The notes beneath the pieces were generated by a model. That model did not search any database, had not been told where the DNA came from, and saw only the letters and a program-made list of their open reading frames with translations. Shown here piece after piece: positions 12,465-19,616 of a stretch of 64,000 nt of DNA. The stretch is from a virus. A program made the translations under genes and the position numbers. The stretch lies in the IMG/VR virus record IMGVR_UViG_3300028394_000040; one strand, given 5' to 3'. The number at the start of each line of letters is the position of its first letter. Within the stretch, counting starts at the first letter, position 1.

Positions 12465-13109
12465 TTAATTTTTAGTTTTATAAAGCGCAACAGATGAACA
12501 CATTTCTAAGAAATACTCTTCAGTCCAATTAGACTTTAATTTATTAATATCCTTATGAACCCATTGTACGTTACCAGTAATGTAACCTTTAGTACTGTCT
12601 ATCCTATCTAAAGACGCCGTATTTTTTTGATATCCGTTTTTATTTAAACTACCTAAAGATACGTCCAAAACTATATCGAAACCTGACAATGCACATATTC
12701 CTCTTTGTTTTTCAAATAATTCCCAGATCTCTTCTATTTTAACTGAAAATTCTAAATTCCTACTTTTAGCTCCGTTTTGAATAACTCGCCACATATCACC
12801 TGATATGTCTTTATAACCTTTCCAAATTTTCGATCTCCTTAGTACTCTCTGTTCTACATTTTCGAACTGTTTATACGCGGTAAGTTTTCTAGTTTCAATT
12901 AACTTTATTGCTTTCTCTTCTCCATACCTTTCGATATAGGATTTACCTTTGCTAAATTTTGAAATTGCTTCTACTGTTTCTCTAGAAGTCATTTTTGCGT
13001 TTGGAAACAGCCTTAAATATTCAGCCAACTCTAACCCGTGTTTATCCCTTAAATGAGTATTAGTAACTTTCTTAAATTTAACTTTACATATATTGCATGT
13101 TACCATCAC
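12465..13109 (-). CDS. Free-standing His-Me (HNH/EndoVII-like) endonuclease with N-terminal Zn finger
   Basis: CNIC..THLRDKHG; QRGICALSG..SLDRIDSTKGYITGNVQWVHKDINKLK. Confidence 0.75.
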   Translation of the reverse strand: MMVTCNICKVKFKKVTNTHLRDKHGLELAEYLRLFPNAKMTSRETVEAISKFSKGKSYIERYGEEKAIKLIETRKLTAYKQFENVEQRVLRRSKIWKGYKDISGDMWRVIQNGAKSRNLEFSVKIEEIWELFEKQRGICALSGFDIVLDVSLGSLNKNGYQKNTASLDRIDSTKGYITGNVQWVHKDINKLKSNWTEEYFLEMCSSVALYKTKN

Positions 13110-13153: not shown

Positions 13154-13864
13154 CTACTCAGAAATTTTATAACTTCTCGTAAACTCATAGAATTCTGCTC
13201 TTGCTGAATCTTCATCTAAGAAGCATCCTGATAGTTTTGCTGTTTTCATGGATGCTCCGTGATGTTTGACACCCCTGCAGGAAACACATGCATGAGTCGC
13301 TTCGATCAAAACGGCTACACCTTGATTCCCTTCGCAGATTTTATTTACTGCATTGTGAATAGCTACTGTTAACTGCTCTTGGATAGCGCCTCGTCTCCCA
13401 AAGTTCTCAACGATTCTATTAAGCTTTGATAAGCCTACTACCCTACCGTTTTCAGAAGCAATATATGCTATATGTACTTTACCTTTTATTAAGCCGTGAT
13501 GATGACTACACATAGAAACCAGTGGAATACCGCCCTCAAAAACGATTCATGTATATCCATCGCTAGGGAATGCAGTAACTTTATCTAAAGGTTCATAACG
13601 ACCAGCCCATAAATGATTAACGTAGGCTTTAGCTACTCGATGAGGAGTTTCGGATGAGTTTGGATCGTTTTCCCAATCACATCCTAAAGCAGATAAGAAC
13701 CAACCGAACGCTTCAGCAGCATCTTCGATAATTATTTGCTTATCTAAATCAGTTAAACGAGCTTCAGGGCCGTTAATTGCTTGTTTGGCTGCCAATTGCG
13801 TTGATATACCATTAGCGAATCCTGCTTGAACTAGTTCAGTTCCTTCAATAAATTTTTTTGACAT
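13154..13864 (-). CDS. folE: GTP cyclohydrolase I interrupted by an in-frame TGA at 13547-13549 (readthrough, pseudogene or sequencing error)
   Basis: ETPHRVAKAY..FPSDGYT*IVFEGGIPLVSMCSHHH..GLSKLNR..QEQLT..HACVSCRG; the two track ORFs are in the same frame. Confidence 0.9.
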
Positions 13865-13869
13865 TTGTG

Positions 13870-13896
13870 TTTGTTTTTAAGTGGTGCTACGACACT
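13870..13896 (-). promoter_or_regulatory. preQ1-I-like riboswitch aptamer upstream of folE
   Basis: AGTG-TCGTAGCAC-CACT-TAAAAA-CAAA, ending 5 nt before the folE ATG; class I preQ1 pseudoknot layout. Confidence 0.6.
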
Positions 13897-13917
13897 ACAT
13901 AACCGAAAGTAAAGTTA

Positions 13918-14340
13918 TTACTTTTTTAAATAATCTTGTATAGTTTCTGAATCTTTATTTTCCCAAGGGAAAACTATCCATGCATTAGAATCAATTGACT
14001 CTGCATAATATTCTGGAATATATTTAGAATTAGTTCTCCAAAGTAGGCTTGCAGTAGTAAATCCACAGTAATGAAAATCTACAAAAGTTTGACCAGAATC
14101 GCATATGTCATCAATAAGCAATGTCTTAGCCCTAATGTCTTCCTTTAACATTATAGCATCTTCTACAGATAAAAATTCTATACCAAGCTTATGTGATAGG
14201 AGTACTGCCGGTATTAATCCACCTCTAGCAGGACCTGTAACATACTTCAAATTTTTATTTAACAATACCCATTTTTCGATAGCATATATGTACTCCTCTA
14301 CTCCCGACCATGACAGGTGAATTTTATCTGGTGTTTCCAT
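13918..14340 (-). CDS. Type I phosphoribosyltransferase (xanthine/guanine PRT-like)
   Basis: ARGGLIPA, LLIDDICDSGQTF, WIVFPWE. Confidence 0.88.
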   Translation of the reverse strand: METPDKIHLSWSGVEEYIYAIEKWVLLNKNLKYVTGPARGGLIPAVLLSHKLGIEFLSVEDAIMLKEDIRAKTLLIDDICDSGQTFVDFHYCGFTTASLLWRTNSKYIPEYYAESIDSNAWIVFPWENKDSETIQDYLKK

Positions 14341-19554: not shown

Positions 19555-19574
19555 ATAACTTTATTTATAAAATT

Positions 19575-19616
19575 AAGACGTATTATTTTATTGATCGATT
19601 AGTCCCGGTAACCGAT
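19575..19616 (-). promoter_or_regulatory. Candidate H-type pseudoknot in the queC leader
   Basis: ATCGGTTA/TAATCGAT stem; loop GGGAC complementary to downstream GTCTT after an A-rich linker. Confidence 0.35.

Follow-up and report, generated by a model that had tools for sequence, protein, structure and literature searches.

A candidate miniature preQ1-I-type riboswitch ahead of folE and other 7-deazaguanine genes in phages

A short RNA element that stands directly before the GTP cyclohydrolase I gene (folE) in a viral genome, and that recurs in related phages, is proposed here to be a miniature, phage-specific preQ1/preQ0-sensing switch, which would turn translation off by steric occlusion in Bacteroidota hosts that do without Shine-Dalgarno (SD) sequences. 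From comparison of the sequences, we put the probability of this reading at roughly 0.6. The element was recognised in a stretch of 64,000 nucleotides (IMG/VR record IMGVR_UViG_3300028394_000040), which as a whole is called the window below. Since a conserved and covarying preQ1-like fold precedes a gene for a modified guanine, a metabolite-sensing RNA probably throttles the pathway with which these phages rewrite their G.

The element and its surroundings in the window

The sequence given in the initial annotation, AGUG-UCGUAGCAC-CACU-UAAAAA-CAAA at 13896..13870 of the minus strand, agreed with the window letter for letter, and direct reading of this strand from 13898 to 13862 gave GU-AGUG-UCGUAGCAC-CACU-UAAAAA-CAAA-CACAA-AUG. 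The 5′ strand of the stem P1 (AGUG, 13893–13896) pairs with its 3′ strand (CACU, 13880–13883), and these cells are paired in 99.3% across the family. The loop UCGUAGCAC between them (13884–13892) contains U, A and G and a final A-C that are invariant in the family. The A-rich L3 (UAAAAA, 13874–13879), which has 6 nt in the window and whose final A is equivalent to A29 of the Thermoanaerobacter tengcongensis (Tte) aptamer, is followed by the 3′ strand of P2 (CAAA, 13870–13873), which pairs with bases of the loop. The pseudoknot would end, as had been stated, 5 nt before the folE AUG (13862–13864), the spacer being CACAA (13869–13865). The top P1 pair G13893-C13883 is the equivalent of the pocket floor G5-C16 in Tte, and U13892 and C13891 are the equivalents of its U6 and C7. 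The 5′ strand of P2 is G13890-U13889-A13888-G13887, and L2 is C13886-A13885-C13884, of which C13884 is the presumed ligand-pairing cytosine. The pair C13873-G13887 makes the ceiling, as G11-C30 does in Tte, and A13870-U13889 is the equivalent of the Tte pair C9-G33.

The motif is contained in the 53-nt gap between folE and an upstream phosphoribosyltransferase (PRTase)-like gene (13918–14340, minus strand). It is present in the window as a single copy, scored at 40.7 bits by R1, a covariance model trained on 35 distinct versions of the element, with the runner-up match at 14.9 bits; across the family, P1 through P2 cover 27–28 nt. Neither of the usual expression platforms was found: the window has no SD sequence between the element and the folE AUG, and its minus strand shows neither a promoter nor a terminator consensus at this leader. 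In the family, an A-rich spacer of 2–10 nt separates the end of P2 from the AUG. Taken alone, a stem of 4 bp that closes a loop of 9 nt is predicted to be marginal in stability. In the GUG/CAC class of copies, which includes the window, ViennaRNA favoured a competing hairpin GUGU[CGUA]GCAC (−3.6 kcal/mol). This hairpin could be the ligand-free alternative state, and it is not kept in the GAG/AAC class.

The putatively regulated folE spans 13154–13864 on the minus strand and carries an in-frame TGA at 13547–13549, a single codon that splits two halves lying in one frame and that reads GGA (Gly) in the nearest relative (G001). The N-terminal 105 codons have 92% identity to the intact 235-aa FolE of this relative, and the C-terminal half matches PF01227 (GTP_cyclohydroI) in Pfam at 4.7e-36. 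Nonsense mutation, read-through and sequencing error are all possible causes of the TGA. Directly after folE lies an ORF of 214 aa (12465–13109, minus strand) that is HNH-like by eye and has no Pfam match; it is missing from the nearest relative, in which a dCTP-deaminase-like gene adjoins folE instead. The 3′ half of folE beside this ORF has 83% identity and is more diverged than the 5′ half (92%), and the two observations would be consistent with co-conversion during insertion of a homing endonuclease. By Pfam and annotated relatives, the neighbours of folE in the window include QueF, QueC, QueD, QueE-like, PRTase-like and P-loop kinase proteins and a PurN-like (DpdN-like) formyltransferase. 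The queC leader of the window (19555–19616, minus strand) has an 8-bp hairpin AUCGGUUA...UAAUCGAU with an A-rich stretch behind it, and this hairpin matched neither R1 nor any Rfam family.

A promoter-like box, TTC[G/T]TATATT, was seen 10–20 nt upstream of the element in most relatives (for example at 620–640 of locus L013), so that transcripts starting there would have the element at their 5′ end. The box is deleted in the window (13900–13917) and in the nearest relative. Given this deletion and the lack of a promoter or terminator consensus, the window copy would act inside a polycistronic mRNA, and from the deletion together with the in-frame TGA it may be under relaxed selection.

Recurrence, covariation and distribution of the element

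The initial annotation had named absent conservation before homologous folE genes among the grounds for refutation, and conservation was found there. In 80 viral loci collected by FolE protein similarity alone, without use of the motif, R1 located the element immediately ahead of folE in 49 and a second copy, approximately 2.3 kb upstream and before a queD-queE operon, in 19; elements were also found before queD, queE, folE2 and the leader gene of the queD operon. The coding strand carries 69 of the 69 R1 hits, and the model recovered variants from outside its training set, such as those with the loop UCACAG at 30–33 bits. The distinct versions collected, in related uncultured phages, numbered 78. 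In Flavobacterium phage immuto, GGAG-UCGUAGAAC-CUCC-AUAAAAACAA stands just before the folE AUG, with a stem that differs on both sides and with the same loop and tail, and the remainder of the spacer between the PRTase gene and folE is unalignable between the window and this phage. Because the element recurs in protein-selected loci, on the sense strand only, with covariation in its stem and in surroundings that do not align, it is not a chance occurrence.

A pattern scan of IMG/VR gave at least 143 matches in at least 120 stretches, at least 119 of them with the 4-bp P1 intact. Among the 119 intact-P1 matches listed, at least 43 precede FolE, at least 59 precede a small membrane protein that heads queD-queE operons, at least 3 precede QueD, at least 3 precede QueE and at least 5 precede a 197-aa lipoprotein-like ORF beside queC. 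Among the 24 matches listed without an intact P1, 20 had no ORF behind them, as chance matches would. A copy with a P1 of 3 bp stands before a FolE2-type GTP cyclohydrolase (PF02649, 1.6e-25; L197:8333-8942), and since FolE2 is isofunctional with FolE and not homologous to it, the element appears to be tied to the pathway and not to one gene lineage. The association with 7-deazaguanine synthesis genes that is looked for in preQ1-I members was thereby found at folE, folE2, queD, queE and the queD-queE leader gene. Wherever the loci reach far enough, the carriers encode a DpdA-like protein, a DpdN-like formyltransferase and QueF, and the motif is absent from the FolE relatives in Cellulophaga phiST-type clusters, which make dDG.

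The gene for the small membrane protein comes first after the second copy and precedes queD-queE; the protein has been seen in viruses only, has 60–107 aa and is marked by the motif PDPKLHQxxSFxKSGIR and a hydrophobic tail (L013:676-933; L136:4134-4454; many others). No Pfam or PHROG family was found for it, its look-alikes were viral hypothetical proteins only, and the window does not encode it. The 197-aa lipoprotein-like ORF beside queC (L110:2640-3230, L128:9087-9677 and relatives) follows the loop variant UCGGAG, in which the tail is CACC and the P2 pair is maintained.

Across the family, compensatory change was observed in three of the four P1 pairs. The outer pair is AU in 14 sequences, UA in 13 and GC in 8, the second reads GC or AU, the third is UA in 22 and AU in 14, and the top G-C is invariant, giving stems such as AGUG/CACU, GGUG/CACC, UGUG/CACA, UGAG/CUCA, GGAG/CUCC and UAAG/CUUA. 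The covariation score of P1 was reached by none of 500 shuffles, although the kinship of the sequences makes such shuffle statistics overstate independence, and when the partner was slid by 1–3 columns as a control, pairing in P1 fell to 31–58%. P1 has 4 bp, and 5 bp in a few copies; its shortness, noted in the initial annotation, is a feature of the whole family and not a defect of the window copy. The loop occurs as UCGUAG, UCACAG, UCGAAG, UCGGAG and UUGAAG. The U after the P1 5′ strand and the closing G-C are invariant, and the C that follows this U is present in all except the UUGAAG variants. The retention of the loop UCG-x-AG and of the C before the P1 3′ strand, on which the initial annotation had relied, extends to the family, the A-C being invariant in 78 of 78 distinct copies.

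For P2, each loop position was checked for pairing against each tail offset in the 78 distinct copies. The U-A that had been suggested to replace the Tte pair C9-G33 falls exactly at the sole covarying loop/tail pair, between loop position 4 and tail C+3, and no other register of P2 stands out. At this pair, all 8 copies with C in the loop have G in the tail, all 4 with G have C or U, and 48 of the 61 with U have A or G; the five with A stay unpaired. In all, 60 of these 78 related sequences are paired, the shuffled mean being 51.3 and 3 of 2000 shuffles attaining that number. The pair of the loop G with the tail C is invariant and hence uninformative on covariation. With the unpaired A variants and the kinship of the sequences, the covariation of P2 is supportive and not conclusive. 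Alternative pairings of UCGU with ACGA and of the P1 5′ strand GUG with a tail CAC were considered and were not upheld across the family. The L3 has 7 nt in 62 of 78 copies, and the tail C stands 5–14 nt from the AUG in 77 of 78 and 3 nt from it in the remaining one.

The element was found in phage DNA. A strict pattern search in one genome per species (185,579 bacterial and archaeal genomes) gave 15 places, of which one was genuine, a 5.9-kb contig with the small membrane protein and folE in a Verrucomicrobiales MAG. This contig is binned phage DNA, and the strict pattern did not find the element in the prokaryote genomes proper among those searched. When 151 sampled Bacteroidota genomes were searched with R1 and RF00522, and part of the candidates scored, nothing came over threshold; one Bacteroidota genome has a sub-threshold RF00522 match of 25 bits (L228:1501-1543), which reads GUGG-loop-CCAC-AAAAAAACAAGG. 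Among GenBank phages, the immuto isolates are the only carriers, and when the second-copy class was compared with these phages by BLAST, chance hits alone came up. The cultured carrier of the element before folE is Flavobacterium phage immuto_2-6A, in the DNA of which G is replaced by formyl-dPreQ1 at 345,000 per million nucleotides (PMC10516641).

Proposed mode of action and rival explanations

In the mechanism that we infer, a free 7-deazaguanine base from the phage pathway, likeliest preQ1 and possibly preQ0, would pair with C13884 and be stacked between the pair G13887-C13873 and the G-C that caps the 4-bp P1. The stacking would lock the A-rich tail into the minor groove of P1 and into the short P2, and the folded knot, ending 2–10 nt from the AUG, would sterically block loading of the 30S subunit and lower the translation of folE. 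In the relatives, the same block would act on the queD-queE operon, queD, queE and folE2. The outcome would be end-product feedback on the entry of GTP into the pathway that replaces G of the phage DNA by formyl-preQ1. Ribosomes of Flavobacterium and of Bacteroidota at large do without SD pairing and start on A-rich leaders free of structure, initiation being modulated by the folding of the leader and by A's upstream (PMC6847099). The preQ1-I pseudoknot of Carnobacterium antarcticum still represses translation with as many as 10 nt between it and the ribosome-binding site (PMC10018353). With SD-less initiation at A-rich sites and repression possible over up to 10 nt, a ligand-stabilised knot that occupies the landing site would be the most economical reading.

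The same fold might instead serve another ligand, such as formyl-preQ1, 7-carboxy-7-deazaguanine, dihydroneopterin triphosphate (the product of FolE) or guanine/GTP. The end product of the carriers is indeed formyl-preQ1 and not free preQ1, and an L2 cut to 3 nt with a P1 cut to 4 bp could reshape the pocket. All nucleotides that contact preQ1 in Tte-like aptamers are nevertheless retained, and the relatives that make dDG are without the motif. Furthermore, the architecture is identical before folE and before the queD-queE operon, which implies the same regulatory sign at both places and so favours a late product over an intermediate between FolE and QueD. A different ligand is thus considered unlikely. 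It is similarly doubtful that the RNA senses no small molecule and is a translational operator hairpin for a protein, either a phage RNA-binding repressor or an autoregulating enzyme of the pathway. Phage translational operators are typically short hairpins beside the AUG, their asymmetric loops strictly conserved, as known for T4 RegA and gp32, and the anatomy of the element resembles these; its stem alone is thermodynamically weak, and it is restricted to phages. On this account, however, both the position-by-position preQ1-I pocket in loop and tail and the loop-tail covariation in the pseudoknot register would be coincidences, and the A-rich tail with its fixed length of 7 nt is conserved as well. 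No candidate RNA-binding protein co-occurs with the element, the sole regularly linked protein of unknown function being the small membrane protein.

Much less probable still is action at the DNA level, in which AGTG-N9-CACT would be a promoter-proximal inverted repeat or operator bound by a dimeric transcription factor. The repeat does lie 10–20 bp downstream of the TTC[G/T]TATATT box in most relatives. Against this, its half-sites vary freely while remaining complementary, which proteins that read bases would not tolerate, and the conservation sits in the asymmetric spacer and in a one-sided A-rich tail. All 69 of 69 copies are on the sense strand, and the window keeps the element though the promoter-like box is gone. 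The reading as a preQ1/preQ0-sensing OFF switch accordingly stays the preferred one among those weighed. In its fullest version, in which we believe slightly more than we disbelieve, the element would be a phage-specific fourth subtype of class I preQ1 riboswitches and the smallest natural metabolite-sensing aptamer (27–28 nt), which by SD-free steric occlusion in Bacteroidota would meter the replacement of every viral G through a regulon of folE/folE2, queD, queE and the leader membrane protein, with formyl-preQ1 perhaps as the ligand.

If the RNA binds a 7-deazaguanine, it would be the first known regulator of phage DNA hypermodification, which is a major anti-restriction strategy, and phages would be metering the drain on GTP by a riboswitch. 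It would also bring the size of the minimal natural aptamer below the 34-nt record of preQ1-I and provide a natural example of a riboswitch that governs translation where bacteria do without SD pairing. That standard Rfam annotation missed the element indicates that very small motifs can go unseen in viral metagenomes, and the phage element is experimentally tractable.

Comparison with known riboswitches

The Rfam preQ1 model, which the initial annotation had proposed as a check, did not detect the element: the window gave no hit, and its relatives reached at most 9.8 bits against a gathering threshold of 39. On five related phage records, RF00522 scored 9.8 bits at one motif copy and otherwise gave unrelated chance hits. 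Against all of Rfam, neither the whole window at the gathering threshold nor segments of 161 nt and 101 nt that contain the motif, taken from the window and from locus L019 and compared at E ≤ 10, matched a preQ1 family, and the hits returned were at chance level. In the opposite direction, R1 scored bona fide preQ1-I riboswitches at 11–12 bits with E about 2–3, which is not significant. As no model score is significant, homology is argued from features of the consensus. Genuine preQ1-I members were taken from 151 Bacillota genomes with RF00522, and four genuine Tte-like ones (L234, L235, L237 and L238) scored 29.7–37.5 bits, under the gathering threshold, which indicates that Rfam-based annotation under-calls the Tte-like subtype. 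For an element of 27 nt with deletions in P1, L2 and L3, the lack of a significant model score is weak negative evidence.

No literature was found that combines riboswitch, DpdA and phage, and the word ‘riboswitch’ is absent from two papers on phage 7-deazaguanines (PMC10516641 and PMC6884629). The known phage 7-deazaguanine clusters have the same genes as the carriers (FolE, QueD, QueE, QueC, QueF, DpdA and DpdN), with no RNA regulator described. Streptococcus phage Dp-1 was not taken as a precedent, an Rfam scan of its que region having found no preQ1 riboswitch. Before folE, the THF-II riboswitch (the folE motif of Rfam) is known, with a hairpin architecture and a ligand unrelated to those of preQ1-I. 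The phage element and THF-II thus share their place before folE, but their folds are unrelated.

Class I preQ1 riboswitches are sorted by the two bases ahead of the P1 3′ strand: A-C marks type II, which takes up one ligand and has Tte among its members, and U-C marks type I, in which two ligands are stacked (PMC11625349). The class I label that the initial annotation gave to Tte is correct, its subtype being type II by the current nomenclature (PMC11625349) and the older ‘type 1’ label of some papers a known misclassification. By its invariant A-C, the phage element belongs with type II, and it would group closest with the Tte-like ‘AC’ subtype. The type I riboswitch of C. antarcticum is a compact pseudoknot that represses translation at a distance, which is the steric mechanism proposed here for the phage element, but that RNA has U-C and two ligands, whereas the A-C of the phage element is that found in one-ligand types.

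The Tte-like Bacillota members read P1(5 bp)-UCGCAG-N(1-3)AC-P1′-A-rich-CAAGGAGG, with CAAGG after the A-rich stretch, and the phage family reads P1(4 bp)-UCGUAG-N-AC-P1′-NUAAAAA-CA(A/C)R. Each of the pocket positions seen in the Tte-like members is kept in the phage family: the G-C at the top of P1, the U and C after it, the loop G with its partner C in the tail, the A before this C and the A-C that ends L2. The phage element differs from type II in having a P1 of 4 bp and not 5 bp, an L2 of 3 nt and not 4–6, and an L3 of 7 nt and not 8–10, and in lacking a GGAG after the tail, as its hosts do not use SD. Roth et al. (2007) reportedly gave the 34-nt minimum usually quoted for the preQ1-I aptamer, and the phage aptamer, with 27–28 nt, is shorter than this value. 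It was found in phage contigs only, unlike type II, and would control supply for DNA modification where type II controls that for tRNA modification. With type II, as represented by Tte and the four Bacillota members named above, it shares the H-type layout (P1, U-C-G-Y-A-G, a short L2 ending in A-C, P1′, an A-rich L3 and the tail C-A-N-R), the same pocket positions with a covarying pair in the C9-G33 register, and the place directly before 7-deazaguanine biosynthesis genes and beside the start codon. These likenesses and differences together suggest that the element, of which we found no mention in a prior paper, is a phage-specific miniature variant of the preQ1-I kind of riboswitch.
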